64,000 nt of DNA from a virus. Below, piece by piece: positions 34,400 to 64,000 of the stretch. A program made the translations under genes and the position numbers. Numbering within the stretch: the stretch's first letter is position 1; every line of letters starts with the position of its first letter. Location of the stretch: IMG/VR virus record IMGVR_UViG_3300029959_000004, positions 45,386-109,385 of that record. One strand, given 5' to 3'. The notes beneath the pieces are model-generated. The model was not told the DNA's origin. It saw only the letters and a list, made by a program, of their open reading frames with translations, and made no database searches.

Positions 34400-34413
34400 C
34401 AAAAGGAGTAGCG

Positions 34414-35885: not shown

Positions 35886-35892
35886 AGAAAAT

Positions 35893-36231: not shown

Positions 36232-36232
36232 A

Positions 36233-37093: not shown

Positions 37094-37122
37094 AAATATA
37101 AATAAAGTAAGAGGAAAATAAA

Positions 37123-43227: not shown

Positions 43228-43869
43228 TCATTTTATTAATCTCTTATATTTTCTAGAGGCGGCGTTATGTTTTATTACAATATTATCACATTTAATATAA
43301 GGTTCTTTCCCGTCTGGGAGAGATGAGATCCAACAGTAATTTAGAGGAAGAGGAAAGATTTTAATAGATTCTTTTCTCTCCTCTAATAACTTTGCTAAAA
43401 CCTTCTGCTCCCACTCTTGTGCCGTTTCTGCACGAACATACCACTCTCTTACAAAATCTCTCATCTTTTCACTATTGCGTATAAACATAGTCCCACTAAG
43501 TACTTCCATTATATGAGAGTTGTTTTTATACCAAAAGTCCCAATTTAGTGTATGGAAAGCTATATCTACATCTTCTGGAATTTCGTTAAACAATTTGGGA
43601 TAGGAGAGAACTTCCGAATCGGCGTCCAAGACGATTATATTATAGGAAGGGAACTTTTCCATAGTTCTTAATATAGAAAGTGGTTTCTGAGCTACATTCT
43701 TTATCCAAGAACCTCTATTCTCAACTACTTCTATGTGATACTTCAATCCCAACTTATCTAAGCTAGGTAGCAGTTGTGTGGAAAGTATTAGTTCATAGGG
43801 GCTGTTTTCCGAAACAAATGCACTTACTATACAATTATCTATTTTTATATTTCCTTGTTCAAATATCAT
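43228..43869 (-). CDS. GT-A glycosyltransferase (nucleotide-diphospho-sugar transferase, GT77-like)
   Basis: KPLSI...VLDADS (DxD)...LSGTMFI...WEQ...IKHNAASR. Confidence 0.8.
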   Translation of the reverse strand: MIFEQGNIKIDNCIVSAFVSENSPYELILSTQLLPSLDKLGLKYHIEVVENRGSWIKNVAQKPLSILRTMEKFPSYNIIVLDADSEVLSYPKLFNEIPEDVDIAFHTLNWDFWYKNNSHIMEVLSGTMFIRNSEKMRDFVREWYVRAETAQEWEQKVLAKLLEERKESIKIFPLPLNYCWISSLPDGKEPYIKCDNIVIKHNAASRKYKRLIK

Positions 43870-43873
43870 TTTA

Positions 43874-44605
43874 TTACCAAACTCCTCTTTGCGACTGTGT
43901 TTCGGTTAATATATTTTCTTTAGAAAATGGTTCAAAATTATCTAATCTCTTATTTTGAATTATTCCTTCTTTTATCCAACTTCCTTCTAATATTTTTCTA
44001 TCTTCCTTATAGAATCCACTTCTAAATACAGTATCAGTGTGAGCTTCTTTATGATTGACTATTACAGGTACGGGTGCTATTTCTAACTGTCCTCCTGCTT
44101 CATATGCTCTCATAACTACATCGTTCTCAGATTGACCACATATAAATCTTCTGTCATATCCTCCAAGCTCATTAAAAAACTCTCTATTCATTACTCCAAA
44201 AGGAGCCATTCTAGGAGCATTGGGATCTTTACCTCTAAGTCTATGAAACTCAGTTATGTCTCTACCGTCTTCTACAGTTCTAAAAGCTACTACTAGTTTT
44301 CTATTATTAAACATCTTAAAGAACTCATATACTCTATCCAAAGCGTTGGGAGGGTAAATGGCGTCATCGGCACTCCAATTTATGAGCTCTCCTTTAGCTT
44401 CGTTAAAAGCTATTTGATAGCACTGGCTAGGCTTAGTTTTTGAGGAAATATACTTAAAGTTATTCGGTAACTGTACTAAAGGAGGATTGGGACCTACATA
44501 TATTAACTCCCACTTCAAATCATTCTGTTTTAAAGAGTTATATGTAGCTTCCCATTGTTTTGGCCTCAGAGCACTCGCACAAATTGAGATCCGTATGTCA
44601 CTCAT
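43874..44605 (-). CDS. GT2-like glycosyltransferase
   Basis: AKGELINWSADD, GGYDRRF, SENDV. Confidence 0.85.
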   Translation of the reverse strand: MSDIRISICASALRPKQWEATYNSLKQNDLKWELIYVGPNPPLVQLPNNFKYISSKTKPSQCYQIAFNEAKGELINWSADDAIYPPNALDRVYEFFKMFNNRKLVVAFRTVEDGRDITEFHRLRGKDPNAPRMAPFGVMNREFFNELGGYDRRFICGQSENDVVMRAYEAGGQLEIAPVPVIVNHKEAHTDTVFRSGFYKEDRKILEGSWIKEGIIQNKRLDNFEPFSKENILTETQSQRGVW

Positions 44606-44805
44606 TTATCTCTCCTCGATTTAGTCTTAAACTTAAATTCTTCCTTTTTATATCCCTCTTTTACTCTATCTATTTTACAATCTCTTTTAATGTGCTCTAT
44701 ACTCTCTTCTTTCTTGATGTTTTTAAGTCTTTTTTCGAGTTTTCTAGTCTTGTTTCTTATTCTTATAGCACTGGTGTATTTCGAGTTACTCTTTTTAGCT
44801 TTCAT
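44602..44805 (-). CDS. Small basic hypothetical protein
   Basis: ORF with SD AAGGAG. Confidence 0.5.
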   Translation of the reverse strand: MKAKKSNSKYTSAIRIRNKTRKLEKRLKNIKKEESIEHIKRDCKIDRVKEGYKKEEFKFKTKSRRDK

Positions 44806-44936
44806 TCAAATCTCCTTGTTTGTTAAAATATAGCTGTTTTTTGAGTTTTGGCTCTTCAAAATTCAACGATCTGAGCTCTAAAATTAAAAAGCGTATATAT
44901 CTACTTCTATATGTAGATCGTGTCTTAAAACGCTTC

Positions 44937-45755
44937 TTATGAACTAGTTGAGCAACCGTAAAAGTCACATTTTGAACACAAAACACTAGAATTTCTGTTT
45001 CCTTTTATGTGTTCTTTGAGTAAATCTAATCTTTTATTACTATTCCAAGCTTCTTCTAATGTCATATCTTTAATATTACCGAGTTTATTTATTTTAGTTG
45101 GATCAAATCTTACACAAGGAAATATATCACCGAATCTATCTATAACTAAATGTGTATATAAATCTTGACAAAAACCAACTTCTGGGATTGTTACTTTCTT
45201 AGTGTAACCAAAACTTCCTTCGGGTTTATGAAGTATTCTTGTAGCTATAATACAATTGTGAACTTTTGCTAATGTTTCCCACTTTTCCTTGTTTTCTACA
45301 TTACCCAATAATCTAAATATAACAAGTGGAGATTTTTGGAAATCTTTATTCATTAAAAATTCAAAAACTGTTGTAAGTTGTTTATCTCCTTCAGGATCAT
45401 TTTCTATCACTGAAATAGTTAACGTATTTAAATTTTCTTTTATAGCTTCTCTAATTTCTGTTCTTGCTAATAGTTTACCATTAGTATTTAAACATTTTAT
45501 ATTATTTGGAAATAACTTCAAAGCATCTGAGAATCTAGGATAGAGTAACGGTTCTCCATTACTATGAAATTGAATAATGATTTCTTTAGGGATTTGTATA
45601 GTTATTTTCTCCAACAATTCGAAATCCATATATCCAAAATTACAAAGTTCAGGATGCTCTTTTTCTAAACGTCTACGACCGCACATCCAACAGCTTTTAT
45701 TACATTCAGAACTGATTTCTATATTCACTACACTTAATCCATTTAGATTACTCAT
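44937..45755 (-). CDS. Radical SAM protein with SPASM/twitch domain
   Basis: CNKSCWMC, GEPLL, C-terminal C..GDIFPC..C..C. Confidence 0.9.
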   Translation of the reverse strand: MSNLNGLSVVNIEISSECNKSCWMCGRRRLEKEHPELCNFGYMDFELLEKITIQIPKEIIIQFHSNGEPLLYPRFSDALKLFPNNIKCLNTNGKLLARTEIREAIKENLNTLTISVIENDPEGDKQLTTVFEFLMNKDFQKSPLVIFRLLGNVENKEKWETLAKVHNCIIATRILHKPEGSFGYTKKVTIPEVGFCQDLYTHLVIDRFGDIFPCVRFDPTKINKLGNIKDMTLEEAWNSNKRLDLLKEHIKGNRNSSVLCSKCDFYGCSTSS

Positions 45756-46006
45756 TTTCTTATCGCTTTCTTGTAGTATTCGCTATTCTTAGAAACTCTT
45801 TGTTTACCGTCTTTTTGCATATTCCAAACGTTCATTATTTCGTCTTTCTTAGGTTCTAAGAACTCTTCAAGTTCTGTTAAATCTTTAGTTTTCATACTAC
45901 TTTTCACTTTGTGTCTTAGTATTCTGTTTAATATTCTTTTGTCTAACTTTTCGCTTTTTGCTGTTGTAAATCCAACTATCGGGGTCTTTTTTCTGCTTCG
46001 ACTCAT
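45752..46006 (-). CDS. Small basic protein (MSRSRKKTP type)
   Basis: SD GGAGG; ATGA-coupled to the radical SAM gene. Confidence 0.65.
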   Translation of the reverse strand: MSRSRKKTPIVGFTTAKSEKLDKRILNRILRHKVKSSMKTKDLTELEEFLEPKKDEIMNVWNMQKDGKQRVSKNSEYYKKAIRK

Positions 46007-46397
46007 TTAATTCCTCCACTATTTCACACATGTTTTTATCGTAATCTTTACAAAACATTACTTTGTGTGTTTTAGTCTTATCTGTTTTTATAGGAGAACA
46101 AACAATCTCATATTCAACTAACTTATTTCTTATATACTGCACATTGTCTACAGTAAAAGCTATGTGATTGAAAGACTCTGTAGAGTTATTAGGCATCCAA
46201 TATAGTTCTAACATGTCTCCGTTGTCAGTTCTTAATTTTACCCAAGTTAAAACCTTTAACCCTAAAAGAGACTCTATATAATCTCCCTCTTCTCTGCCAG
46301 TACTGTCGTATTTCAACCCCAATAGTTTCTGATAGAAGAAGTTGGCTTTTTCTAAATTGTTTACACAGATAGCACTATGACGTATATTTTTAGGCAT
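45897..46397 (-). CDS. VOC/glyoxalase-family protein
   Basis: HSAICVNNLEKANFFY..LLGL, LEL, HIAFTV, FCKDYD.N.CEIVE. Confidence 0.85.
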   Translation of the reverse strand: MPKNIRHSAICVNNLEKANFFYQKLLGLKYDSTGREEGDYIESLLGLKVLTWVKLRTDNGDMLELYWMPNNSTESFNHIAFTVDNVQYIRNKLVEYEIVCSPIKTDKTKTHKVMFCKDYDKNMCEIVEELNESKQKKDPDSWIYNSKKRKVRQKNIKQNTKTQSEK

Positions 46398-46399
46398 AT

Positions 46400-47641: not shown

Positions 47642-48324
47642 TTCATTAATCCTTTCGCTAGTTTAAAATCAAATTCATCGTCTATCTCCATTGTTCTTTC
47701 TGTTACAAAAGGCATTATAGAGTTACCATACAACTCGTTGTTTTCCAGTATTTGTTTGGTAACTAATATATCAACATAACCATTAGCACTATAAGACGTA
47801 GGAACTTGTTGATTTGGCAAGTTACTTAATTCTTTATTAAACGGCTCTAGATAGCAGTTCTTAATAGAATATGTTTTATATATACTTTCCTTCATCTCTT
47901 CTACGCTTCTTAAAGAAGAATATTTAGTACTGTCAAACTTTTTCATAGCTTTTCTTACTATGTTAGCGTCTCTAAAAGGAGTAGTAGGTCTTAAAAATAT
48001 CAATTGATCTGGATATTCTCTTTTTGTTATGTAATATTCATCTAAGAGATGTTTGATCCAATCTAAATCAGTTGAAATATTTGAAGCTAACTCTATCGGC
48101 CTCTTGATATTTATAAAAGTGGAGCGTACTAAACTATCAGAAAAATCGCTAACAGCTTTCAGTATCTCGTCTGAGTCTGAAGAAACATATACTGGCAAAC
48201 TAAGCATTCTCGCTACTCGTAGAGTATATTCTATTAGTTTATGTTTCCCAAGATTTTTAATATTCTTGTTCTTTACTCTTTGACTACCTGAACGAGCTCC
48301 GCAAATTACAATTCTATTGTACAT
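47638..48324 (-). CDS. neuA: CMP-nonulosonate (acylneuraminate) cytidylyltransferase
   Basis: ARSGSQRVKNKNI, LRPTTPFR, ANG, EIDDEFDF. Confidence 0.88.
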   Translation of the reverse strand: MYNRIVICGARSGSQRVKNKNIKNLGKHKLIEYTLRVARMLSLPVYVSSDSDEILKAVSDFSDSLVRSTFINIKRPIELASNISTDLDWIKHLLDEYYITKREYPDQLIFLRPTTPFRDANIVRKAMKKFDSTKYSSLRSVEEMKESIYKTYSIKNCYLEPFNKELSNLPNQQVPTSYSANGYVDILVTKQILENNELYGNSIMPFVTERTMEIDDEFDFKLAKGLMK

Positions 48325-49153
48325 CTTTAGTTCTCCAAAGTTTTTCTCTAATCTTCATTTCCGAAGGCGTTATAACCTTTCTACCGTCTCCCAGTTGCTT
48401 TTCAGCGTCTTTAATATAATCGACCATTTTTTTAAATCCATTAATTTCTATTGAAGATGCTTGGTCACTCCCATACATTGTCCTATCTAAAGTTATGTGG
48501 GCTTCTATAGAACTTGCTCCCAAAACAACAGCTAATACGGGAGGAATAATACCGGGAGAATGACTACTAAACCCCACTTTACAATTGAAAGTGTCTTTCA
48601 GAGTATTTATAGTTAGTAAGTTCAAATCTTCATCGGGACAGGGATAGGTACTGTTACAAGACATCAGTTCATAACTACAGTCATATTCTTTAAAAATATT
48701 AATAGCATAATCAATCTCTTGTATCGTAGACATACCGGTAGAAATGAAAGTATATTTCCCTTCTTTAGCTATTTCTCTTAATAATTCTTCATGACCCAAT
48801 CTAGCTGAGGCTACTTTATTATATTTACAGTCGTATTTCTTCATAAATTCTAAACTTGATAAATCCCAAGAAGATACCATCAAATCTATCTTCTGTAAAT
48901 CACAATATTTCTTTATAATATCATATTCTTCTTCATTAAATTCTAACTGCTCCTTCAAATCCCTATTTGATAATCCAAAAGGAGACTCTCTATATTTATC
49001 TAACTCTTCTTTGGTGTATGTAGAATTTACATTTCTCTTTTGTAGTTTAAATACATCCGCACCAGCGAACACTGCACCGTCAATCAATTTTTTACACAAT
49101 TCTATATTTCCAAGATGATTAATCCCGGCTTCAGCGACGATTAATGTCTTCAT
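48314..49153 (-). CDS. neuB: Nonulosonic acid synthase (NeuB family, no C-terminal SAF domain)
   Basis: AEAGINHLG, FKLQK, KVASA, ISTGMS, STYP, GFSSH, EAHITLDRTMYGSDQ. Confidence 0.92.
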   Translation of the reverse strand: MKTLIVAEAGINHLGNIELCKKLIDGAVFAGADVFKLQKRNVNSTYTKEELDKYRESPFGLSNRDLKEQLEFNEEEYDIIKKYCDLQKIDLMVSSWDLSSLEFMKKYDCKYNKVASARLGHEELLREIAKEGKYTFISTGMSTIQEIDYAINIFKEYDCSYELMSCNSTYPCPDEDLNLLTINTLKDTFNCKVGFSSHSPGIIPPVLAVVLGASSIEAHITLDRTMYGSDQASSIEINGFKKMVDYIKDAEKQLGDGRKVITPSEMKIREKLWRTKDVQ

Positions 49154-50013
49154 TATTTCTCCTTTTTAATAGTCAAAACTATAGTATCTGATTTCTTTAA
49201 TATTCTACACAAGTACCATTTATATAGATTATCAAGAATTGGTATATTTATCTTTAGATTTGTTGGTTTCTTTCTAATTAGCCAGTTTAAATGATTAACT
49301 ATTCCGTAATTCTGTTTTCTTTCTACGGTACAGTTAATTATCTTATTTCTATATAATAAACCACTTACGGTTTCTATAGTATAGAAGAAATGATGATCTG
49401 GTCTATAATAAAACTTCTCAAACTCTTTAATCTTATATATAGTCAATAAAGGATCTTCTAGATTAGGAAATTCCAGTAATATAGTTCCGTTATCTTTTAG
49501 TAAATCTTTCAATCTACTTATAAACTTAATCGGATCTTTCATATGTTCTAAAATATGTAGTCCATAAATAAAATCATATTTAGCGTTGTCTAACTCTTTA
49601 TCAAAAATATCATTACAGTAAATTTTAGCTTTCTCATCAGTTACTGAGAAGTCTTTATCTATGCCAACAATATGATATTTATGTTTAGTCAAATATCTAA
49701 CATTACTCCCAGAACCACAACCTACTTCTAATATAGAGTAATTTCTGTTAATATATCTTTTTATATATTTGCTAATACGATCAGAAGGAGTTTTCTGATT
49801 TGAGAAATCTTTCTGCTGATTATAATTTTTATATATCTTCTCCAGTTCTTTATCACTCCATTGAGGTATTAACTGTACTGTTTTACAGTTCTTACACTCC
49901 ACTATCTTTCTTCTAGTATTATAACACTTAAATCTAATCTCATCTTTTCTTGCTATCGTTCTTGATTTAAACAAGTCTTCTCCACAAATACTACAATGCA
50001 TTTTTTTCTCCAT
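49153..50013 (-). CDS. Class I SAM-dependent methyltransferase with N-terminal Zn ribbon
   Basis: CSIC..CKNC, ILEVGCGSG, HILEH..DP. Confidence 0.88.
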   Translation of the reverse strand: MEKKMHCSICGEDLFKSRTIARKDEIRFKCYNTRRKIVECKNCKTVQLIPQWSDKELEKIYKNYNQQKDFSNQKTPSDRISKYIKRYINRNYSILEVGCGSGSNVRYLTKHKYHIVGIDKDFSVTDEKAKIYCNDIFDKELDNAKYDFIYGLHILEHMKDPIKFISRLKDLLKDNGTILLEFPNLEDPLLTIYKIKEFEKFYYRPDHHFFYTIETVSGLLYRNKIINCTVERKQNYGIVNHLNWLIRKKPTNLKINIPILDNLYKWYLCRILKKSDTIVLTIKKEK

Positions 50014-51336
50014 TTAATTATGACGAAAGCCTCTCCACGTTAAGTCTTTCTCTATATAAAGTCTCTTTAGTTGTTTCTCTGCTGAGTATATTTTATTCTT
50101 ATAGTAGTTACATAACAACTGAAAGTTAGCACTATATAAAGCTTTATAAAATTCTTCGTCAGTTAACTCTGTAAAATTTATACTTAATAAGTCACTGTTT
50201 TTAAGTTTTTTCTCATAAAAATTCGCAGTATCTTTAACTAAATTCTTTTCTTTTGCTGTTTCAAATAACTCTGACCCCGGATAAGGTTGTACTGGTGATA
50301 TAGTTCTTAACTGAGCCCCATCATCATATTTAATTAAAAACTCTATTGCTTTCTTGAGAGTTTCTTTATTATCTCCTATGTTTCCAAACATTATGTTAAG
50401 ACCTGGACTAATTCCTTCTTTTAAAGTAGCTTCTACACCATTAATAATCTGAGATACTGTTAAATCTTTTTTTATGTTAGTTAGAACTTTGTCATCTAAA
50501 CTCTCTATACCGTAATTAATAAATATACATCCTGCTTTCTTAAGCAATTTTAGTATTTCTGAATCTGTATAGTTTAATCTACCTTCACATCGCCATTTAA
50601 TATTTAAAGGAATTAAAGCTTCCGCTAATTCTACCGTACGTTGTTTAGAAGTGAATGTTAAATCATCTGCAAAATCTATATAAGTTATATTATATTTGTC
50701 TTTAAGAAATTTAATTTCAGAAACTATTTTTTTAACACTTCTTAATCTTACTCCAGGAACATTTCTGTAGCAAAATGTACATCTTCCCCAACATCCTCTT
50801 CCAGTAAGCATAGACATTGAAAATTCATTGTTACTTATGTTAGGAAATCTTTGTAGACGATAATATGAAATAGGAAACATATCATAAGCTGGAAACGGTA
50901 AATCATCTAGATTTTCTACTAACTTTCCTTCTTGTATTCTATCATTTGTTAAATTTTGAAAAGTTAACTCTCCTTCTCCCTTTATGCAAACGTCAGCCTC
51001 AGTCTTTCTAAGAAAATATTCAGGATCTGCTGACGGCATATGACCACCGATAATATACTTAAACTTTTTTCTGTTAATGGAAGCGTTAACAGCTTTACTA
51101 AACGATAATAATGTTTTATAAGTATAATAACCAGCTATGCTCCCAACAGCTACTATATCAAAATGATTGTTATCTAAATATTCGGTTATATGCTCGTTTG
51201 GATAGTGATTAACGTCTTGATTATAAATCACTATCTCATTACCCGCTTCTCTTAGAACACTAGCAAGGTAAGCTACTCCTAGAGGGAATGAGTGAATATA
51301 GTTCGAATTATTTAGCACAGATAAGAGAATTTTCAT
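50014..51336 (-). CDS. B12-binding radical SAM enzyme
   Basis: PLGVAYLAS, IIGGHM, GEGE, GRGCWGRCTFC, GIES. Confidence 0.92.
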   Translation of the reverse strand: MKILLSVLNNSNYIHSFPLGVAYLASVLREAGNEIVIYNQDVNHYPNEHITEYLDNNHFDIVAVGSIAGYYTYKTLLSFSKAVNASINRKKFKYIIGGHMPSADPEYFLRKTEADVCIKGEGELTFQNLTNDRIQEGKLVENLDDLPFPAYDMFPISYYRLQRFPNISNNEFSMSMLTGRGCWGRCTFCYRNVPGVRLRSVKKIVSEIKFLKDKYNITYIDFADDLTFTSKQRTVELAEALIPLNIKWRCEGRLNYTDSEILKLLKKAGCIFINYGIESLDDKVLTNIKKDLTVSQIINGVEATLKEGISPGLNIMFGNIGDNKETLKKAIEFLIKYDDGAQLRTISPVQPYPGSELFETAKEKNLVKDTANFYEKKLKNSDLLSINFTELTDEEFYKALYSANFQLLCNYYKNKIYSAEKQLKRLYIEKDLTWRGFRHN

Positions 51337-51482
51337 CTGACGGAGACAACACCTTCCATTTTTCCAGTACCTTTACAGTCAGGACAGTTCTCTTCTTCAT
51401 TTGTCACGTTCTTACCAGTTCCATCGCAAGCGGGACAAGTAATGATTACTTTCTCTCCAGGTTTCTTAAATTTTGGAATCAT
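51333..51482 (-). CDS. Stand-alone DnaJ-type zinc-finger peptide (49 aa)
   Basis: MIPKFKKPGEKVIITCPACDGTG...CPDCKGTG; ATGA-coupled, SD GAGGAG. Confidence 0.7.
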   Translation of the reverse strand: MIPKFKKPGEKVIITCPACDGTGKNVTNEEENCPDCKGTGKMEGVVSVR

Positions 51483-52197
51483 TTTTAATCTCCTCTATAG
51501 TTTGATTATATGTTAATTTACGAAATACATTATATGTAGATACGTCAGAACAATTAATTATACTCGGTATATATCCAAATATAGAACGCATAATGGGATT
51601 AAAGGAACTATTGATGTTATTTGTATCTCCAGTCATATTGTAAGACACATTATCAGCTAATTTTTTATCTTCTAATATTAGTTCCGGTTTGTAATAAGAA
51701 GATACTGAATTATCATAAATACCACCACCGTCAGCACCAAACAATATGATTGTTTTCGCATTAAGTTTGAGCAAGCAAGCAATATATAAATGTAAACTAA
51801 CACAAAATTGGTTGCAATCAAATCCAAGATTTTCTCCGTAAATAATTTTATTTTTATATTTCTCATTAAAGTCGCTTCCTATTCTATTTCTTAAATCATA
51901 TAAATTATCTTTACCTTGTTTTAGAGTAATATAAGTAGTGTTTTCTCTGTTTAGATACTCTATTAATCTTGGTAATCTAACTCTACTCTCATATTCTACA
52001 TTATTTTTAACAGTAGAACAGTCAAATACTATATCAAAAGACTTGTTTATCTTCTTTAATATCTCTTCACTTGGATTAAAGTAATTCATACCACACCAAA
52101 CTATATTTAAGTTTCTAAACTCTTCTATTCTAGACTCAAGTTCAGAAAGACTACTACCGTGTGCTACTATGGCACATATTTTATTACTCAAATCCAT
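51466..52197 (-). CDS. Maf/DUF115-like (sialyltransferase-fold) transferase candidate
   Basis: CAIVAHGSSL, IILFGADG, IINCS motifs. Confidence 0.65.
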   Translation of the reverse strand: MDLSNKICAIVAHGSSLSELESRIEEFRNLNIVWCGMNYFNPSEEILKKINKSFDIVFDCSTVKNNVEYESRVRLPRLIEYLNRENTTYITLKQGKDNLYDLRNRIGSDFNEKYKNKIIYGENLGFDCNQFCVSLHLYIACLLKLNAKTIILFGADGGGIYDNSVSSYYKPELILEDKKLADNVSYNMTGDTNNINSSFNPIMRSIFGYIPSIINCSDVSTYNVFRKLTYNQTIEEIKNDSKI

Positions 52198-53755: not shown

Positions 53756-53858
53756 TTTTACTCCTAAAATATTCTATCCAATATTTTCTATTTCCATTAG
53801 TTTTTGCATGACATTTTCTACAAATAGATATTAGATTATTAATTTCATTATATAAATT

Positions 53859-55310
53859 CTATCTTTCTATAATTAAAGTTGATTTTGAGGATAAAGAATC
53901 CATTCTTTGTTTTATCTCATTTCTTATTTTTTTAGTCTCTTTCGGGAAAGAGAATATTTTGTTTTCTATATGATAGTTGTATACACAACGTCTAATAAAA
54001 CCAAAAAATCTATTTGCTGGTATATTCTTTATAATCCACATACCAAAGTAACGAGATAAGCCGGATAGTTTAGAAACTAAACAACCGAGAGCATAAATAT
54101 TATATCTAATATTTTTTTCTTTCTCACTAAAACAGTTTAGAGGAGACTTCTGAAACATATGAGTCATATCTCCTACAAATGTATCTTTATCTATATATTT
54201 ATGTTCTATACAGTAATCGTAAAGTTTAGTGCCTTTCATAGGTTCAGTTGTAGTATAGTTTACATAAGTTACTTTTGCTCTCCTACTTACTTCTATAGTA
54301 TTTAAATCGTCTTCTAATGTAGATTCTGGTGTAGCTAACATAAAATTAACAAAAGTGTTTATATCATAGCTTTTAATTCTTTTTAGTTCATATTCTATAT
54401 TCACATCTCTCATACTTCTATTCAACACTTTTTCTCTAACGTGTTGAGAGAGACTGTCTACAGATAAATTAACAGAGTAACATCCCGCTTTCTTGAGTAG
54501 TTTTAGAATATCGTCATCTACTCTATCAAACCGCAAATAACAGTTGAACGGTTTTCCTATTCTTTTGGAATATTTTTCACTAAATTCTTTTAGCCAGTCA
54601 TCAGCTTTCATAGCGAATAAATCATCTCCCATCTTAACAAAATCCATCTTGTATCTTTCTTGCACATATTCTATTTCTTTAATAATTCTTTCAACTGAAA
54701 ATCGTCTAAACAATGTACCTTTATTTTTATAAAGCTCGTGATAATGCACGTTGCAACAATAATTACACCGGAAAAAACATCCACGACTAGTATAAAAGGT
54801 TTTCTTCGGAATATTCTTTAACCAGGAATTAGATAATACCAAATCTCTGTCAGGAAAAGGCATTTCATCTAAGTTGCTAATCAGATTTCTTACTGGATTA
54901 ATACCTTTAGGAGTAATAAGATTCTCTACATCATCATAATTTCTATCTTGTTCTAATCTATCTAAAAACTCTTCAAAAACTAATTCCCCCTCTCCTCTGC
55001 AAAATACATCAATACCACTATCTTCATATGTTTCTGGAGAGAAAGTTGCTTGAGGACCTCCCAAAATTGTTACGCATTTATGAATGTCTTGAGCCTGCTT
55101 ATTAGCTTCTATCAATTCTTTAAATCCCATTATATTAGCAGAATAAGCTATTACATCTGGTCTAATTGTATCTACCGTTTTTCTAAAATCGTGACTTCTC
55201 AAAGAACAAAAATAAGTACTATGTTTTCTTTGTTTAGCTACCGCCGATAGATAAGATATTGCTATATGATCAGCAAAATCTAATTGTTGTATTACGAATA
55301 GTATTTTCAT
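53859..55310 (-). CDS. B12-binding radical SAM enzyme
   Basis: ILGGPQAT, GEGE, SRGCFFRCNYC. Confidence 0.92.
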   Translation of the reverse strand: MKILFVIQQLDFADHIAISYLSAVAKQRKHSTYFCSLRSHDFRKTVDTIRPDVIAYSANIMGFKELIEANKQAQDIHKCVTILGGPQATFSPETYEDSGIDVFCRGEGELVFEEFLDRLEQDRNYDDVENLITPKGINPVRNLISNLDEMPFPDRDLVLSNSWLKNIPKKTFYTSRGCFFRCNYCCNVHYHELYKNKGTLFRRFSVERIIKEIEYVQERYKMDFVKMGDDLFAMKADDWLKEFSEKYSKRIGKPFNCYLRFDRVDDDILKLLKKAGCYSVNLSVDSLSQHVREKVLNRSMRDVNIEYELKRIKSYDINTFVNFMLATPESTLEDDLNTIEVSRRAKVTYVNYTTTEPMKGTKLYDYCIEHKYIDKDTFVGDMTHMFQKSPLNCFSEKEKNIRYNIYALGCLVSKLSGLSRYFGMWIIKNIPANRFFGFIRRCVYNYHIENKIFSFPKETKKIRNEIKQRMDSLSSKSTLIIER

Positions 55311-55838
55311 TTAATCGTAGAAAAGATCCTGTCTCTCTATAATTAATATTGAAGTATCTGTTTTTCTAGCAAAATCATATACGTAATGCACTTCTTGTAC
55401 ATCATTTAATTTAAATACAGGGAACTTGCAAGCTACTTTCAATAACTCTGTTAAATCTTGACTGTGTTGTATGCCAGCCTTCTTAAGGCCTATAGTGGTT
55501 CTAAATATTATTTTTGGTTTATATAACCCTCTACTTAACTTCTCAAAGCAGTTTAGATGATTAACTATGGCATCCATGGCTCTGGGTAAGAAGTCACATC
55601 TCTGATATATGGACACCGGTAAAAATCCCTCTAAAGATAATCCCAAACTCAGAGAGAGTTGAAGCTCCTCTGCTACAGGCATCTCAACTCTTCTGTTCAA
55701 AGAAATGTCTTTGAGAGTAGAGTAGTGGTCTTCGCTAGCAACCTGTTGCCCAAGAAATATTACTTTAGGATTTTCTGCTAGTTTAATATTCTCTTCGACT
55801 ATTGCTCTGTGATAATTACTATAAGGTTTAAATGTCAT
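55311..55838 (-). CDS. TPP enzyme beta subunit (pyrimidine-binding domain, E1-beta/transketolase-like)
   Basis: IFLGQ, EMPVAEE, RCDFL..AMDAIVNH, QHSQD. Confidence 0.85.
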   Translation of the reverse strand: MTFKPYSNYHRAIVEENIKLAENPKVIFLGQQVASEDHYSTLKDISLNRRVEMPVAEELQLSLSLGLSLEGFLPVSIYQRCDFLPRAMDAIVNHLNCFEKLSRGLYKPKIIFRTTIGLKKAGIQHSQDLTELLKVACKFPVFKLNDVQEVHYVYDFARKTDTSILIIERQDLFYD

Positions 55839-56791
55839 ATTTCACTTTTTTCTAAAATTGTTAATAATCTAATATTAAAAATTTTAAAATATTCAATCCA
55901 ATATTCTCTATTAGTGTTAGTTTTTATATGGCAACTATTACACAAACTTATCAAATTATCTACATTTATATTCATTTTATCATAATTAATATGATGAATA
56001 CAAAGTTTACGTTTACATTCTGTTTCTGATACTCCACATATTTGGCATTTATAACCATCTCTAAATCTAATTTGTTCTTTAAAAGTTTTGTTCCAACCTA
56101 ATGGATATATTTTAAAAGATTTATTTTCTTTCCAAAGTGGACTATTTTCTCCAGTATATTCTCCTCTCATAGCTTTACAACATGAACATGGGCAATCTAT
56201 TTTATGAATTTCTCTTAATTTTTGTCCTTTATGCGAATTAGATAATTTTTGTATATGTTCTTTTGTTAATTTTATACCCCTGGTAGAATGCCCAGAAATA
56301 AATTTTTGTATAGAATTTATCTTACATTCAAAAGTTATTCCACATCCACAATTACAGAATCTATTTTCAATTGGAATTTTTCTTTTAGATGGAAGATTTC
56401 TATTATTATGCCCACTTATAAATCTTTTTGTAGAATTAACTTTACATTCAAAACTAATACCACAACCACAAATACAATATCTTATTTCTAAAGGAATTTT
56501 CCTCTCTTTTTGTCTTAACCATCCCTTTTGTAAATTTTTAATTGGAGGATTTTGTTTTGTATAATGACCATTAATAAATCTCTTTTTAGAAGTAACAATA
56601 CACTCAAATTTATTATTGCATCCACAACTACAATTTCTTTCTTCTCGTTGTTTTATTTTTAATACTGCGACTTTCAAAACTTTTTCATTAGTTTCTTTAG
56701 TTAATCCCTTATTCCAAGGTATTTGCCCCTTTTTAAATTCAGTCAAAGGATGAATTCCTTTTTTAAATTGACCAGAATTAGAACATAACAT
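55835..56791 (-). CDS. HNH homing endonuclease with three CxCGC repeats
   Basis: GQFKKG..PWNKG, three C.CGC..FEC...FI.GH units, RDGYKCQIC..IHHINYDK..NLISLC.SCH. Confidence 0.88.
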   Translation of the reverse strand: MLCSNSGQFKKGIHPLTEFKKGQIPWNKGLTKETNEKVLKVAVLKIKQREERNCSCGCNNKFECIVTSKKRFINGHYTKQNPPIKNLQKGWLRQKERKIPLEIRYCICGCGISFECKVNSTKRFISGHNNRNLPSKRKIPIENRFCNCGCGITFECKINSIQKFISGHSTRGIKLTKEHIQKLSNSHKGQKLREIHKIDCPCSCCKAMRGEYTGENSPLWKENKSFKIYPLGWNKTFKEQIRFRDGYKCQICGVSETECKRKLCIHHINYDKMNINVDNLISLCNSCHIKTNTNREYWIEYFKIFNIRLLTILEKSEI

Positions 56792-57389
56792 ATTTTGTGC
56801 TCCCAGAATGAGGATATTGACGATTATACTCGTACATAATTACATTTTTTTTATAAATATTAAACAAGTCGCATTTATTCTTACAATTCTCACATCCCCA
56901 TGAATTTAAAGTATTTGCATTAACGCTATAATGATTATTTTCTATAATAAAAATGATAGGTAATTGAAATCCACAAGAAAATCTAATGGATTCTGTAGCT
57001 ATACCTGTTAAAGATGTCATATCTCCTAAGAAGCACAATACTTTATTCTTACTGTTCTTTAGTTTTAACCCCATAGCTATACCTACGGCTATTGGTGCTA
57101 TACCAGCTACTATAGAAGAAGTTATAAAGTTTTTATCAAAGACGCTCATAGAATATCCTTCTAATATCTGTTTTTTAAGTTCTTCTTTAGAACGTCCTGA
57201 TAGCAACCAATGTAAATGTGATCTCCACGTTGACAGTATTACGTCTCCGTCTTTATAATTGTCTTTAAATATTTGTATTAGTTGTTCTTCATTATTATCT
57301 ACTAGATGAACGGGAGCTTTTATTTCCCCTTTGTTGTAAAGTTCAGCTATTTCCTTCTCAAATTCTACAAGTTCCTGTTTAGTTAGCAT
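56778..57389 (-). CDS. TPP enzyme alpha subunit (E1-alpha-like)
   Basis: APVHL, STWRSH, SSIVAG, FLGD...ENN TPP motif; start taken at MLTKQEL. Confidence 0.88.
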   Translation of the reverse strand: MLTKQELVEFEKEIAELYNKGEIKAPVHLVDNNEEQLIQIFKDNYKDGDVILSTWRSHLHWLLSGRSKEELKKQILEGYSMSVFDKNFITSSIVAGIAPIAVGIAMGLKLKNSKNKVLCFLGDMTSLTGIATESIRFSCGFQLPIIFIIENNHYSVNANTLNSWGCENCKNKCDLFNIYKKNVIMYEYNRQYPHSGSTKYVMF

Positions 57390-58057
57390 TTCTCTACTTC
57401 CGTTAGATAGTCGGTTGGTATAAAATTGCATAATTCTTCAGTTCTATGTTTAATAAATATACAATCTGTTAAATCAACAGTTTTTTTCATTTTATAATAT
57501 ACTGAAGTTATGTGCGTGTCAGCAGTATTATGATAAAAGAAAGGATCGAATAAATGACCAAAATGTTCTATTCCTCTTCTTGATATTACAGGAAAAGAAC
57601 ACGCTGGGATAGGTTCTCCATTAAATCCTCTAGCTCCTATATTGTCTTTAGTTATACCCAATACTATATCATCGGGTAGTTTAGACAATGCTTTACTGTC
57701 CCAATCTTTATAGGCAAATACAGCGTCATCATTCATTGGCATTATGTATTTACCTTTAGCGTACTCTCTAGTAAGAAGATTTACATAAGCTACTATACCG
57801 GGGAAGTTCTGATTATGAAAAGTCATAGAAACTGGATCTATTTCATAATAAAATACTTGCTTGTTCTTTTCTTTGTATTTATCTAAAATAGCTTTTAATC
57901 TAACGTCTCCAGTATTTATAGCTATATGAGTATCTATCGTATCTGGATAAGTAGCGTTGTCATATATTGAATTTAATACAGTGCGTATCCATTCCCATCT
58001 TAAAGAAGGTAACACTATACTAAAATTAGTAGATTGTTCTTGTTTAAATACGCTCAT
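57383..58057 (-). CDS. GT2-like glycosyltransferase
   Basis: SIVLPSLR, AKGKYIMPMNDD, SFPVI, ADT. Confidence 0.85.
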   Translation of the reverse strand: MSVFKQEQSTNFSIVLPSLRWEWIRTVLNSIYDNATYPDTIDTHIAINTGDVRLKAILDKYKEKNKQVFYYEIDPVSMTFHNQNFPGIVAYVNLLTREYAKGKYIMPMNDDAVFAYKDWDSKALSKLPDDIVLGITKDNIGARGFNGEPIPACSFPVISRRGIEHFGHLFDPFFYHNTADTHITSVYYKMKKTVDLTDCIFIKHRTEELCNFIPTDYLTEVEKC

Positions 58058-59301: not shown

Positions 59302-59832
59302 TTAGGTGATCCTCACTTCCAATTTAAATTTATTTTTCCAGTAGTCTCTATTATAATTAGCTCTTATATTACACCAATTACATAAAGCTATTAAATTATT
59401 AATATCATTATTTTTCTTATCGTAATCTATATGATGACACGCTAAACCATATCCCATAACTATTATATGTTCTTTTTCTGTCATATTACAATTTTTACAT
59501 ACATAATTATCTCTTTTTTTAATTTCTTCTTTTAATTCTCTATTGAATTCTCTAGGATATCTTTCATAAGATAATCCACCTTTCCAAGAAGGATTTTTAG
59601 TTGGATCTTTTAATAGTATTTTCATTGATTCACTTATCTTATCTTTTTCCCATTGTTGTCTTTTTCTACCAGTATGAATATATTTACTGGCACATGATCT
59701 ACATCTCTTTGCGGTATAGACTTTTACAGATTTATTGCAATCTATACATAAAGGGAGACCTCCTTTCCAGTAAGGATTACCGTCTCCTTTTCTAATAACT
59801 TTAAAATGTTTAAAATATTTTTTTCTATTCAC
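59302..59832 (-). CDS. HNH homing endonuclease
   Basis: NPYWKGG/NPSWKGG, RDNYVCKNC, CHHIDYDKKNN..NLIALC..C. Confidence 0.88.
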   Translation of the reverse strand: MNRKKYFKHFKVIRKGDGNPYWKGGLPLCIDCNKSVKVYTAKRCRSCASKYIHTGRKRQQWEKDKISESMKILLKDPTKNPSWKGGLSYERYPREFNRELKEEIKKRDNYVCKNCNMTEKEHIIVMGYGLACHHIDYDKKNNDINNLIALCNWCNIRANYNRDYWKNKFKLEVRIT

Positions 59833-60193: not shown

Positions 60194-60501
60194 ATTATTC
60201 TTCCTCTCTTATTCCAAATGCGTCAAATTCAGTAGTAATCCAGTTATCACAGTATATACACATAACTTGACCATCTACTACTATAGTTTCTAAATACTTA
60301 TCTATCATTTTTTTACATCTATTACAATATAATTTGTCATTGAATTTATATAGATACTTCACTGTTCTCACGTCTCTTTATTACATATTTTTCTAGTAGT
60401 TTATCTGTTATTTCACTCAAATCAAAAGTAATACCTCTATTATGAGTTATTTTAACATATTTCAAAAAATATTCATAAAAGTCTTTTCTAAATTCATTCA
60501 T

Positions 60502-61614
60502 TTAGACAAAATTTCTGCACATAGGATCATCTTTATTAATTGCTAATCTTTCACATTGAATGTTGTAATGATTGAAGGTACATCTTGATTTACAATTAGC
60601 ACACCCACTATTGAAGACTAAATCATAATGTTTTTTACTACCCCAAAACTTCCATATATTTTCCGGATTTGGATAGTGTTCTCCTAATTTATAATACTCC
60701 AGTTCTCTAGTGTCTGGGCAAAGATAACAACTTCCAGAAGGATTTACTTGCAAACACAATGGACTTGCGTAACACTGTGAAAAAGTTCTTAGTGGGGTAA
60801 AATCATCGTTAAATTTATGAACAATGGTATATGCGTGAAAATCTTTATCATTAAGTTTTTGACATTCTTCAAATTGTTTTTTTATAGATTCTATATCATA
60901 AGGATTAGATTTAGCTTCTTCGGATATTCCCTGATGTCTGAAGTCAGCTGGTCTAATGTGACAATCCTTAACTCCAATCTCTTTAGCTAGTTTGCAAGCA
61001 TCGTATATTTCGTGTTGATTATAACTAAACACTAAAAATTTAAACGCTACATCACAGTTAGTATTTAGTTCTTTAGCTCGTTTTGTTAGTTTTTGAATAT
61101 TTTCTATTACTTTGTTAAAATAATTAGCTTTTCTTCCTATTCCATAAGTTTCTTCAGTGGCTGAATCTACAGATACGCCTATCCATCTGCAAGTTTGAAC
61201 CGCTATATCAATAGTTTCATCATTAAAATTTATGCCATTTGTAGCAATACTATTTTCCATACCAAGTTCTTTAGCCAATAATAACGCATCCCAAAGTTTA
61301 GTGTGAAGAGTTGGCTCTCCGCCTCCCCCGTGACATATTCCACGAACTCCCCACTTAGCGAAGAACTTTATTAGATTCAAATAGTGTTCATCGTCTAGTC
61401 TATTTATTTTATCATTTTTAAGATATTTCCCATAATTGCAATGTTGGCATTTAAGTTGGCAAGCATTAATAGGATCTAACGATACTTCTATAGGAGCTAA
61501 CGGAGAGTTTCTCTTACCAAGTTTCCATTTATCTATAGCGGTATAGTGATTTATGTATGTTAATCCTTTAGCAGAATTAAACGAATTGTACCAATCATCC
61601 CACTCTTTACTCAT
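60502..61614 (-). CDS. Radical SAM protein with SPASM-like domain
   Basis: CQLKCQHC, GGGEPT, C-terminal C..CYLC..C..C..RC. Confidence 0.9.
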   Translation of the reverse strand: MSKEWDDWYNSFNSAKGLTYINHYTAIDKWKLGKRNSPLAPIEVSLDPINACQLKCQHCNYGKYLKNDKINRLDDEHYLNLIKFFAKWGVRGICHGGGGEPTLHTKLWDALLLAKELGMENSIATNGINFNDETIDIAVQTCRWIGVSVDSATEETYGIGRKANYFNKVIENIQKLTKRAKELNTNCDVAFKFLVFSYNQHEIYDACKLAKEIGVKDCHIRPADFRHQGISEEAKSNPYDIESIKKQFEECQKLNDKDFHAYTIVHKFNDDFTPLRTFSQCYASPLCLQVNPSGSCYLCPDTRELEYYKLGEHYPNPENIWKFWGSKKHYDLVFNSGCANCKSRCTFNHYNIQCERLAINKDDPMCRNFV

Positions 61615-62332
61615 TTTTATTAAACTCCTTTATATAATTTTCTATTCTTTTTCGATATTGAGGAACTCCATATAAACTTATGAGATTGTGACAATTAGGG
61701 TCTCTAAAAAATCTCTCTTTCATACTTCTAGCTGTTTCGTCATAGGGAGCTTTACCGTCGTGATAGCTTAAATGTTCTATGTTTATATCTGATATGTGCA
61801 ACGTTCTGTTAATAGAGGGATGTGAATATATCTCCCAAAGTATTCTATCGCTTCCCCAAGACAATAGTTTGGAACAGTGATATTCTCCCAATAATTCAAA
61901 AGCTTCTCTAGTTATTAATGGAAAACAAGGATGAGTAGCTTTACTTCCTTTTTCATTCACTGATACATATGCTATTCTATCTGATTTATTTATAAGAAAA
62001 GCTTCTATTTTTTCTATTAAAACTTTATCCCAGTTCTTCGTAAGAAACTTTACATCGTCACCTATACCAAAAAGAAACTGTCCTCTAGCTTCTTTTGCTA
62101 AAAAATTATAGTAATCTCGATTTAGTGATTCACTTCTTTCAGAAACAAAACTCTTTAAAAAAACATCTTTTGAATTTAGTGTATATAAACTATCGTTATC
62201 TAACTTTACTAATAATTCTATATTGTTTAAATCACTGACGGTTTCATATATATTTTTTATCAGTTTATTAAACTGTTGTTCCCTGTTTCTAGATGGAACC
62301 AAAACACTAATTTTTGGAGTTGATAAGCTCAA
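61607..62332 (-). CDS. GT2-like glycosyltransferase
   Basis: ISVLVPSRNR, ARGQFLFGIGDD, CFPLI. Confidence 0.85.
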   Translation of the reverse strand: MSLSTPKISVLVPSRNREQQFNKLIKNIYETVSDLNNIELLVKLDNDSLYTLNSKDVFLKSFVSERSESLNRDYYNFLAKEARGQFLFGIGDDVKFLTKNWDKVLIEKIEAFLINKSDRIAYVSVNEKGSKATHPCFPLITREAFELLGEYHCSKLLSWGSDRILWEIYSHPSINRTLHISDINIEHLSYHDGKAPYDETARSMKERFFRDPNCHNLISLYGVPQYRKRIENYIKEFNKNE

Positions 62333-63026
62333 AGGAGTCTCCCCATATTAAATTCTTTGCTTTTCTTCTATTATACATTATCTTGTCTGCGTTTAAATGT
62401 TTTCTAACATCAGTATGAGTTTCGTCCATCTCATTTTTAAAGAAAGCTGGATGATAGTGGGTTAACAATGGAGCTATTTCTTTATCGTTTTTATAGAACA
62501 ATTTTTTATGTTTACTAGCATATTCATAAAGCTCAGTATCTAAATACAGTCTTTTATATGATTCACAAAAAACTTTTCTTTCCGGAAATCTATCGGCAAA
62601 TTTATTTCCTACAGCACCAAAAGCTGTTTTACAAGCTTGATTTTCGGGTATATTCTCTTGTATTATAGAAACTACTCCGTCTGTGTCTGGGAACCAAACA
62701 TTCATAGCAGTTTTAACTCTAAACAAACATTCAGGATGTAGTTCTACGTCATCGTTAATATATACCATCATATCTGCGTTCATATTTTTTAGATGATAAT
62801 TCCAGAGTTTAGAAGCTTCATAAGGAAAATCTAAGAGTCTAGTAAAGACACCTTTATTTTCTCTTAGTATATTACTGTCTGTTTGAAAGTCTGCTTTATC
62901 ACTATAATATATGTAAACATAAGAATGACAATCTAATCTAGCTCTGGCTTCTTCTACTGACTTCAAACAACGAAGTAATTTTTCACGTCTGTGATATGTA
63001 GGCAACACAATGTTTAAATTGTTAAT
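62307..63026 (-). CDS. GT2-like glycosyltransferase, probable ATT start at 63026
   Basis: LNIVLPTYHR, VYINDD, LDTE. SD AGGAG lies 6 nt before ATT, with an in-frame TAG just upstream. Confidence 0.82.
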   Translation of the reverse strand: MNNLNIVLPTYHRREKLLRCLKSVEEARARLDCHSYVYIYYSDKADFQTDSNILRENKGVFTRLLDFPYEASKLWNYHLKNMNADMMVYINDDVELHPECLFRVKTAMNVWFPDTDGVVSIIQENIPENQACKTAFGAVGNKFADRFPERKVFCESYKRLYLDTELYEYASKHKKLFYKNDKEIAPLLTHYHPAFFKNEMDETHTDVRKHLNADKIMYNRRKAKNLIWGDSFELINSKN

Positions 63027-63703
63027 TTTAGTCTCCTATTTATTTTATCTGTATTACGTTCATAATCTTTGCCCAAAATTGGATGCCATTTATTTAGAAA
63101 AGTCTCTACATCTTGTTCCCAATATTTACTTCTGTGTTCTCTATATATCTCATCATCAATTTGTCTTGGTATAACACAAGCGTCTTGACATATCTCTACG
63201 CTTCCATTATTAGTCCAGCATTTGAGACTTGCATCTATATCTCCCCAACTATACATAAAATCTTTATGAAAGACATTACCTAAGAAATATACAGTGTCTC
63301 TACTCAAACATCCATAGCAAGCATATAATCTATCATAACAGCCGAAGGGCCCGATTTCCTTACCGTTTGGATGCATCATCTTAAAGGCACCTATAAAATG
63401 TTCTTTCTTATCTTTCATAAAATTAAGCATATTCTTTAAACAGTCTTTTGTAGGACTTACATCATCACTAAAATATACTACATATTCAGAACTAGAGTTT
63501 TCCCAAGCCACATTTGTTGCGGGAGCACTACCTTTACATACATCTTCTTTTATCCATTTAGTCTTTATTCCCTTTACTTCAAAAGGACTAACAACTACCA
63601 ACTCGTAGTTTGTAGAAAAATTAGTTTCGTCAAACTCTCTAATGCTTTTTGTTAAAGCTTCTGGTCTTAAAGAAGGTAAAAGAATACTAATCTCTGTTTT
63701 CAT
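63014..63703 (-). CDS. GT2-like glycosyltransferase
   Basis: ISILLPSLRP, YVVYFSDD, WGDID. Confidence 0.85.
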   Translation of the reverse strand: MKTEISILLPSLRPEALTKSIREFDETNFSTNYELVVVSPFEVKGIKTKWIKEDVCKGSAPATNVAWENSSSEYVVYFSDDVSPTKDCLKNMLNFMKDKKEHFIGAFKMMHPNGKEIGPFGCYDRLYACYGCLSRDTVYFLGNVFHKDFMYSWGDIDASLKCWTNNGSVEICQDACVIPRQIDDEIYREHRSKYWEQDVETFLNKWHPILGKDYERNTDKINRRLKLTI

Positions 63704-64000
63704 TTAATTTACTATAGAACCGCTCATAATTAATTTTTTCAAAGCAAGTAATAGAACTTTCCGGACTCACGTTGTATATCTTAGTCTTTATATCTGGACT
63801 AGTAAAATATTGCCAATCTGATACTTCATCTTTAATATTAGTTCCGTTTCTATATAATTCCGGTTTACCAACTCCAGTAGATTTAACTTCTATTACATCT
63901 TGATAGAAATGTGTTTTACTACTGTTAGAGCCAAAATCAAAACCCAACAGATATATGTTTTCTGAATTTTCTTTAATAGCTAAATGCAAAGCAAAAAACC
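63687..64000 (-). CDS. Maf/DUF115-like transferase candidate, C-terminal part (start outside window)
   Basis: ALHLA...IYLLGFDF...THFY...IYNVSPESSI..FEK. Confidence 0.6.
   Translation of the reverse strand, partial: FFALHLAIKENSENIYLLGFDFGSNSSKTHFYQDVIEVKSTGVGKPELYRNGTNIKDEVSDWQYFTSPDIKTKIYNVSPESSITCFEKINYERFYSKLNENRD

Follow-up and report, generated by a model that had tools for sequence, protein, structure and literature searches.

A candidate glycan assembly and tailoring island beside the fibre genes of an uncultured tailed phage

Glycosylation by virus-encoded enzymes is an established trait of chloroviruses and giant viruses, and of a small number of mycobacteriophages. In the chlorovirus system (PBCV-1 A64R), as in the glycosylation of mimivirus fibrils, soluble virus-encoded glycosyltransferases work alongside sugar-tailoring enzymes, and an unusual glycan is built on the virus's own structural proteins in the cytoplasm, without the endoplasmic reticulum, Golgi apparatus or lipid carriers of the host; the A64R system is not known to include nonulosonate, radical S-adenosylmethionine (SAM) or thiamine pyrophosphate (TPP) enzymes. 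In mycobacteriophages, phage-encoded glycosyltransferases reportedly decorate capsid and tail proteins, and their genes are said to lie near structural genes and to number one to a few, with no genes for sugar synthesis or tailoring. Here we describe a 21-kb island of glycan assembly and tailoring genes in an uncultured tailed phage of 109 kb, which lies in the last 64 kb of the 109,385-bp IMG/VR record IMGVR_UViG_3300029959_000004 (labelled G000); this stretch of 64,000 nucleotides is referred to as the window, and positions are those of the window unless another source is given. The island shares with the chlorovirus and mimivirus systems the combination of soluble glycosyltransferases and sugar-tailoring enzymes, although those viruses infect eukaryotes, the likeness is at fold level only (14% identity) and the target of the phage enzymes is a prediction. 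Compared with the mycobacteriophages, it stands apart by its ten transferases, a predicted CMP-nonulosonate branch and five enzymes of the radical SAM type.

The two ends of the record share a 127-bp repeat, leaving 109,258 bp of unique sequence, and the genome is therefore circular or circularly permuted. Virion genes, including those encoding a candidate major capsid protein (16695-17630), a tape measure protein, a tail-collar fibre, a tail-tip protein, a fibre of 1356 amino acids (aa; 37123-41193) and a Gly-rich fibre (41780-43186), form a plus-strand block at 10.4-43.2 kb, and all other genes lie on the minus strand. The island is the minus-strand block that runs from 43228 to the window end and for another 337 bp across the origin of the record; it comprises 23 enzyme genes, all in one orientation, among which two HNH genes are inserted, and forms the 3' end of the minus-strand arm. 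An earlier sequence-only reading of the window had noted its convergence on the fibre genes, which was confirmed, the gene at 43228-43869 facing the fibre gene at 41780-43186. That reading had also expected the cluster to run on beyond position 64000; it does not extend far, ending 337 bp after the origin, and is followed by a PD-(D/E)XK nuclease and then by dCMP deaminase, MazG, class II ribonucleotide reductase (RNR), PolB and RecA. A 294-aa open reading frame (ORF) past the origin, considered as a second Maf-like gene, was rejected, being the PD-(D/E)XK nuclease itself. Gene classes were assigned by Pfam and NCBIfam scans, BLASTP paralogy, hhalign and structure models searched with Foldseek. 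Seven GT2-like, one GT77-like and two Maf/DUF115-like proteins, NeuA, NeuB, a methyltransferase, an aminotransferase and a VOC protein had been proposed from the sequence, and each of these classes was confirmed to be present.

No island protein was found to contain a membrane-type hydrophobic segment, and the proteins of the genome include none with at least four hydrophobic segments and no flippase-sized membrane protein, in keeping with the earlier statement that flippase and polymerase genes are lacking. Export, polymerase and initiating phosphoglycosyltransferase genes were all absent from the phage genome. Since all the enzymes appear to be soluble and none of these genes is present, stepwise assembly in the cytoplasm is the natural reading, and the prediction that the island constitutes a self-contained cytoplasmic system for stepwise glycan building in a virulent-type tailed phage is well supported. 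The earlier proposal went further, placing the glycan on virion proteins. While its first part is borne out by the soluble enzymes and the absence of export genes, the support for this acceptor is circumstantial, namely the adjacency of the fibre genes, the conserved GT77-like gene at the junction and the fold match to A64R. We assign a probability of about 0.5 to the acceptor being at least one virion protein of the phage itself, which is the likeliest choice because of the A64R fold match, the conserved fibre-proximal position of the GT77-like gene and the precedent of virion glycosylation in mycobacteriophages.

According to the proposed mechanism, the host would supply common nucleotide sugars, as well as the aldose that NeuB would condense with phosphoenolpyruvate, and NeuA would convert the product to a CMP-sugar. 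The GT-A enzymes would attach sugars singly to a cytoplasmic acceptor, and the two sialyltransferase-fold enzymes would add the nine-carbon acid to that glycan, while C-methylation, branching (by two-carbon transfer), deoxygenation or amination of the sugars may be the work of the radical SAM, TPP, methyl- and amino-transferring enzymes. The GT77-like enzyme beside the fibres would catalyse a conserved first or anchoring step, and relatives would exchange the rest of the cassette, so that the sugar coat of the particle would vary between lineages. A more detailed picture is put forward tentatively, and is somewhat unlikely to hold in full: the particle would bear a glycan of about ten residues with a nonulosonic-acid cap, and the five radical SAM enzymes, together with a minimal thiamine enzyme, would C-methylate, aminate and add two-carbon branches to the skeleton of this acid or to the sugars beside it, a chemistry that is not known from any virus. 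Lineages would vary the coat by exchanging the genes that lie behind a conserved transferase near the fibres. It is plausible that the sugar chemistry of the island is undescribed. The literature searched contained no description of a phage nonulosonate glycosylation island, nor of a tailed phage that makes and activates a sialic-like sugar together with glycan tailoring by five radical SAM enzymes.

Ten soluble transferases, seven of them GT2-like, one GT77-like and two with a minimal sialyltransferase fold, form the core of the island:

43228..43869, minus strand: GT77-like retaining GT-A glycosyltransferase; PF03407, 26.2 bits (cut-off 22); last gene of the island, converging on the fibre gene
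43874..44605, minus strand: GT2-like transferase; weak PF00535 match (E 0.003); BLASTP to 52188-53003, E 2e-44; hhalign probability 100
51466..52197, minus strand: minimal sialyltransferase-fold (Maf/MptE/GT42-like) transferase, 243 aa; no Pfam match; model pLDDT 93.6
52188..53003, minus strand: GT2-like transferase; paralogue of 43874-44605 (BLASTP, hhalign)
53000..53755, minus strand: GT2-like transferase; weak PglI match; in a paralogue group with 57383-58057 and 61607-62332 (BLASTP, hhalign)
57383..58057, minus strand: GT2-like transferase; PF00535, 21.9 bits, just under the cut-off; paralogy (BLASTP, hhalign)
61607..62332, minus strand: GT2-like transferase; paralogue of 53000-53755, E 2.5e-21 (BLASTP), also by hhalign
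62307..63008, minus strand: GT2-like transferase; weak PF00535 match; hhalign; homologues in related contigs G002, L034, L036 and L044
63014..63703, minus strand: GT2 transferase; PF00535, 24.0 bits (cut-off 23.3)
63687..64000, minus strand: C-terminal part of a second Maf/MptE-like transferase of 216 aa, whose N-terminal part lies at genome 1-464; ORF rebuilt on the circle

The GT77-like protein carries a DAD motif at residues 82-84 that is invariant in 21 homologues, and its structure model (pLDDT 90.7) has a GT-A fold. The top fold match of the model in the PDB is domain 1 of PBCV-1 A64R (2p6w; TMq 0.65, E 7e-9), and its other fold matches are retaining GT-A enzymes, including enzymes of protein glycans and, among the top hits, the mimivirus glycosyltransferase R699. 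The seven GT2-like proteins are 224-271 aa long. Only 63014-63703 passes the PF00535 cut-off, three others scoring 17-22 bits and the last three being linked by paralogy only; hhalign divides the set into two groups, {43874, 52188, 63014} and {53000, 57383, 61607, 62307}, and BLASTP likewise yields two superclusters.

The fold of the 51466-52197 protein was recognized by fold search, with Foldseek matches to CstII, ST8SiaIII, Maf 5mu5 and MptE (probability 1.0, TM ~0.5); a comparison of its sequence profile with PDB sequences gave nothing meaningful. Its family comprises 409 representatives at 50% clustering, and the homologues are mostly ~250 aa long. The origin-spanning protein matches the profile of this family (E 6.7e-7), and PF01973 aligns to its N-terminal part at 24.3 bits, below the cut-off of 34.6. 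A similar gene content is known from the Maf flagellin O-glycosylation islands of Campylobacter, Aeromonas and Magnetospirillum, in which genes for methyl and amino tailoring lie together with those for a NeuB/PseI-type synthase, a CMP-activating enzyme and an MptE/Maf-fold transferase. The Maf systems act on protein in the cytoplasm, and the 51466-52197 model matches Maf as well as CstII (GT42). However, the phage proteins (216 and 243 aa) appear to consist of the catalytic core only and occur in a phage context, whereas flagellin Maf proteins are multidomain enzymes of ~600 aa with flagellin-binding regions, encoded at a flagellar locus, and the early Pse/Leg genes are absent from the phage. 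Moreover, the seven further GT-A enzymes imply an oligosaccharide, as opposed to the single nonulosonate residues added by Maf systems.

Ten related IMG/VR contigs were reached via the terminase. In one of them, G001 (88.5 kb, terminase 57% identical), every island enzyme gene is kept in the same place and in nearly the same order, and the mean identity to G000 is 65.2% for the island (22 orthologues), compared with 58.0% for structural genes (20 genes) and 52.3% for the replication arm. The G001 border differs in that ThyX is present there, and a DUF559 endonuclease occupies the gap equivalent to the 308-bp interval at 60194-60501. The G001 orthologue of the 414-aa radical SAM protein (58057-59301) is enlarged to 752 aa by a LAGLIDADG intein (G001 32176-34434). 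Homing endonucleases and the intein thus occupy different sites in the two genomes, with the enzymes unbroken; the view that the island is functional and under selection is supported by such sequence comparisons. The distal parts of the fibre proteins have diverged between G000 and G001 and the island has not, which suggests that the glycan does not follow receptor specificity.

In G002 (90 kb, terminase 54% identical, same virion module), the GT77-like orthologue (51% identical) is again the first gene past the fibres, so that this gene is kept at the fibre junction across three relatives (G000, G001 and G002), and one GT2-like homologue is also retained. The rest of the G002 slot is filled by two GT10-like genes, an epimerase-GT fusion, a GT2/7-like gene, an NTP-transferase-LicD fusion and two sulfotransferases. 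The position therefore appears to be a variable glycan slot with a conserved GT77-like anchor. Some other phage contigs carry the island in shuffled form. The version in L033 has, in addition, a DegT aminotransferase, an SDR and one more B12 radical SAM enzyme, while L034 and L036 share a core made up of the 370-aa radical SAM and DUF6165 genes, a glycosyltransferase resembling that at 62307, a Maf-like gene and a GT77-like domain, with NeuB in L034 only. In further phage contigs, GT77-like homologues have a tail fibre gene as their neighbour (in L041) or adjoin portal and terminase genes (in L042 and L043). IMG/VR yielded nothing when scanned with NeuB alone. Among GenBank phages, the island gave no megablast match, and tblastn found three weak phage records for NeuB and none for the B12 radical SAM. 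GTDB genomes contained no terminase relative, and their one Maf-like match lies on a 1.2-kb contig of a Patescibacteria metagenome-assembled genome, which is too short for a host call. A contig much larger than G000 (419,765 bp) also encodes exact copies of the 51466-52197 and 43228-43869 proteins; it may be a concatemer or a chimeric assembly, or it may represent a host-linked copy.

The genes for the nonulosonate pair, for three tailoring enzymes and for a DUF6165-like protein are as follows:

45897..46397, minus strand: VOC / glyoxalase-fold protein; PF00903, 38.8 bits
46400..47641, minus strand: class III (omega-type) aminotransferase; PF00202, 252.7 bits
47638..48324, minus strand: predicted CMP-nonulosonate synthetase (NeuA/PseF-like); PF02348, 42.4 bits (cut-off 22.6), residues 5-62 aligned only
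48314..49153, minus strand: NeuB-family nonulosonate synthase, 279 aa; PF03102, 223.4 bits (cut-off 22.1), full-length domain 1-241; TIM barrel only, no C-terminal SAF domain
49153..50013, minus strand: SAM-dependent methyltransferase; PF13489, 70.9 bits
59825..60193, minus strand: DUF6165-like small protein; PF19662, 22.5 bits, under the cut-off

The NeuB-family protein scores below both equivalog cut-offs (TIGR03569, 231.7 vs 399.65; TIGR03586, 176.6 vs 340.25) and stops at about position 274-280 of models that are 327-329 positions long; its best PDB sequence match is the pseudaminic acid synthase 8h2c. Because of the sub-equivalog scores and the lack of a SAF domain, a substrate cannot be assigned to it. 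In its predicted partner, the PseF model TIGR03584 aligns over the full length at 74.6 bits (cut-off 205.7). The nearest solved relatives of the class III aminotransferase are acetylornithine, GABA and ornithine aminotransferases. The DUF6165-like gene adjoins the orthologue of the 370-aa radical SAM gene in G001, L033, L034 and L036.

The CxxxCxxC motif is intact in each of the five radical SAM enzymes, a further sign that the island is functional:

44937..45755, minus strand: radical SAM enzyme with SPASM domain; PF13186, 39.6 bits (cut-off 21.5); CxxxCxxC at residue 18
50014..51336, minus strand: B12-binding radical SAM enzyme; PF02310, 60 bits; PF04055, 72.8 bits; best PDB sequence match AprD4
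53859..55310, minus strand: B12-binding radical SAM enzyme; PF02310, 47.8 bits; PF04055, 51.7 bits
58057..59301, minus strand: radical SAM enzyme with class-B-type core (HpnJ/PhpK-like); PF04055, 51.4 bits; NCBIfam matches limited to the core
60502..61614, minus strand: radical SAM enzyme with Cys-rich C-terminal region (SPASM/twitch-like), 370 aa; PF04055, 76.7 bits

Three of them had been regarded as B12-class and two as SPASM-type by the sequence-only reading, and both counts held in part. A B12-binding domain joined to the radical SAM core, which is the class B architecture, was predicted for 50014-51336 and 53859-55310, the latter being the best-conserved gene of the island (83% identical in G001). 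In 58057-59301 no B12 domain was detectable, hhalign alignments beginning at residue 116-132 and leaving the N-terminal 115-130 residues unaligned. Of the two SPASM-type assignments, that of 44937-45755 was confirmed by PF13186; 60502-61614 has no PF13186 match, and its assignment is based on a Cys-rich C-terminus, with nine of its 18 cysteines at residues 281-366, and on the SPASM, viperin and MoaA families, each matched in part. The class B enzymes of the island probably act on sugars, but SPASM and B12 radical SAM enzymes also modify peptides. In G001, a 66-aa ORF with eight cysteines directly follows the SPASM radical SAM gene (46889-47089, L022), and it has no counterpart in G000.

The remaining genes of the island encode a thiamine enzyme pair and two inserts:

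55311..55838, minus strand: half-sized TPP E1 beta-like subunit (Pyr domain only), 175 aa; NF006667 pyruvate dehydrogenase (PDH) E1 beta, E 2.4e-7, residues 12-131, 30 bits (cut-off 321)
55835..56791, minus strand: HNH homing-endonuclease-like gene that separates the E1 alpha gene from the E1 beta gene; its HNH region is matched by IscB and ZorE models
56778..57431, minus strand: half-sized TPP E1 alpha-like subunit (PP domain), 217 aa; PF00676, 67.2 bits; TIGR03182, 84 bits (cut-off 394)
59302..59832, minus strand: second HNH endonuclease-like gene, a mobile insert; paralogue of 55835-56791, 43% identical over the HNH region

A TPP alpha/beta pair, as proposed earlier, is present, but its subunits are about half the usual size (full-length E1 alpha ~320-360 aa, beta ~325 aa), the beta-like protein lacking the C-terminal domain, and the pair is split by an HNH gene; neither of the two HNH genes had been mentioned. 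No E2 or E3 partner genes accompany the pair, which is predicted to be a minimal TPP enzyme of the E1/transketolase type and not a dehydrogenase complex. In this it resembles AviB1/AviB2 of avilamycin biosynthesis and split transketolases, in which separate alpha (PP) and beta (Pyr) subunits are encoded in a sugar cluster without E2/E3. It differs from AviB1/AviB2 in the roughly half-length subunits and in the separation of the genes by an HNH gene (G000) or a B12 radical SAM gene (G001), and its activity is a prediction. The related island of L034 has a full-size split transketolase in place of the mini-E1 pair, which supports a role in C2 transfer on a sugar. The HNH gene at 55835-56791 is not part of the glycan pathway. 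Related HNH copies occur at other sites in G001, G002 and G003, and these differing sites make them look like active homing elements. The gene order is E1 alpha-HNH-E1 beta-B12 radical SAM in G000 (53859-57431) and E1 alpha-B12 radical SAM-E1 beta in G001 (35102-37600), and this local swap of the E1 beta and B12 radical SAM genes is possibly linked to endonuclease insertion.

Several observations concern the surroundings of the island. Although G000 has neither type of thymidylate synthase, genes for a dCMP deaminase and a MazG-like protein are present (genome 1362-1931, L003), and in G001 ThyX lies between the Cas4-like nuclease and the island. In G000, a protein of 486 aa shows intein signatures, class II RNR contains a LAGLIDADG intein and the primase-helicase has weak LAGLIDADG matches (L003 2891-4351, 4364-7429 and 15742-18630, genome coordinates); PolB is longer in G001 (1030 aa) than in G000 (708 aa), and the lineage is rich in inteins. 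A 195-aa ORF (41206-41793) between two fibre genes, which has an orthologue and four scattered paralogues in G001, probably represents another mobile endonuclease family. The adjacent tail-tip ORFs at 28010-29812 (600 aa) and 29809-31392 (527 aa) correspond to one continuous 1049-aa ORF in G002, and are split in G001 too. Promoter and terminator scans remained at chance level, Rfam gave no match within the island, and the window contains no tRNA genes.

Several points weigh against the phage particle as the target. Its virion proteins contain no striking Ser/Thr tract, the best 40-residue windows reaching 0.40-0.42 S+T; the island reads in the direction of the replication and nucleotide-metabolism arm and not in that of the structural operon; and a DNA ligase gene follows the related island of L033. 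Cargo genes generally accumulate at module boundaries, so that adjacency to fibre, portal or terminase genes may carry little information, and the fold likeness of the GT77-like protein, with only 14% identity to A64R, extends to many retaining GT-A enzymes. A search of the genome for early nonulosonate genes (NeuC-type epimerase, SDR epimerase/dehydratase, DegT aminotransferase) found none, so the phage appears to encode only the last two steps of that pathway. Soluble GT-A enzymes also commonly use undecaprenyl-linked intermediates, which the host could export. The same enzymes could accordingly remodel the host envelope, the transferases acting on undecaprenyl-phosphate-linked intermediates of the host or on surface proteins before their export (flagellin, pilin or S-layer), and a host flippase or ABC transporter displaying the glycan; the benefit could be a block to superinfection or less sticking of progeny to debris. 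This explanation is possible, but the balance of evidence makes it doubtful. In its favour, the GT-A enzymes of O-antigen and capsule synthesis are typically soluble or peripheral, like those of the island, Maf/MptE-like enzymes are best known from flagellin glycosylation, with Maf 5mu5 among the fold matches, and the island sits in the non-structural arm. On the other hand, neither an initiating phosphoglycosyltransferase nor a flippase, a polymerase, a ligase or a membrane protein of the Gtr type is encoded in the genome. The cassettes of classical seroconversion are small, with membrane-bound products, and belong to temperate phages; no integral-membrane transferase or flippase of the kind that defines them was found in the genome. 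The extra domains of the ~600-aa flagellin Maf have no counterpart in the sialyltransferase-fold proteins, and G000 and G001 share the island despite their diverged distal fibres. The earlier judgement that host O-antigen conversion is the less likely course is thus strengthened by the absent export, polymerase and initiating genes, and tempered by the ability of soluble GT-A enzymes to act on lipid-linked intermediates.

An acceptor other than virion or envelope is conceivable as well. A peptide or metabolite, once modified by the radical SAM enzymes, might be glycosylated to give a soluble inhibitor or signal in place of a coat; SPASM and class B radical SAM enzymes are mostly tailors of peptides and natural products, the NCBIfam partial matches include maturases of ribosomally synthesized and post-translationally modified peptides, AprD4, PhpK and HpnJ, and PDH-E1-like pairs occur in antibiotic sugar pathways (AviB1/AviB2). 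Such a product is nevertheless improbable. No conserved small ORF that could encode a precursor peptide follows the SPASM gene, the 331-bp gap at 44606-44936 not being conserved between G000 and G001, and there is no exporter or immunity gene; ten transferases are far above the number usual in natural-product pathways, and G002 holds a purely glycan-type cassette in the same slot. Sugars on the bases of phage DNA, serving restriction evasion, would be in keeping with the position of the island directly downstream of dCMP deaminase, MazG, a Cas4-like nuclease and RNR, yet this possibility is very slight, in agreement with the earlier judgement that DNA hypermodification is the less likely. Nonulosonic acids have, to our knowledge, never been reported on DNA. 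Phage DNA can bear oligosaccharides, but all its known glycosylated pyrimidines derive from a base that has first been hydroxylated or hydroxymethylated, through a ThyA homologue or through TET with a C5-methylase (PMC13326640). PF00303 (ThyA), PF02511 (ThyX) and PF00145 (C5-methylase) are absent from the whole genome of G000, in searches whose positive controls worked, which upholds the earlier statement that a nucleotide hydroxymethylase is lacking; PF12851 (TET/JBP) likewise had no match in the genome, although its control was silent. G001, for its part, has an ordinary ThyX.

If the phage particle is indeed the target of this predicted glycan-building system, phage coats would represent a large and unexplored source of glycan diversity, and such coats could affect adsorption, stability, recognition by immune systems and grazers, and the design of phage therapy. 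The island stands out for its five radical SAM enzymes and for its conservation across a pair of phages whose structural proteins average 58% identity. It also supplies candidate enzymes in a clear genetic context, including a minimal TPP E1 pair, sialyltransferase-fold proteins of 250 aa and class B radical SAM enzymes.

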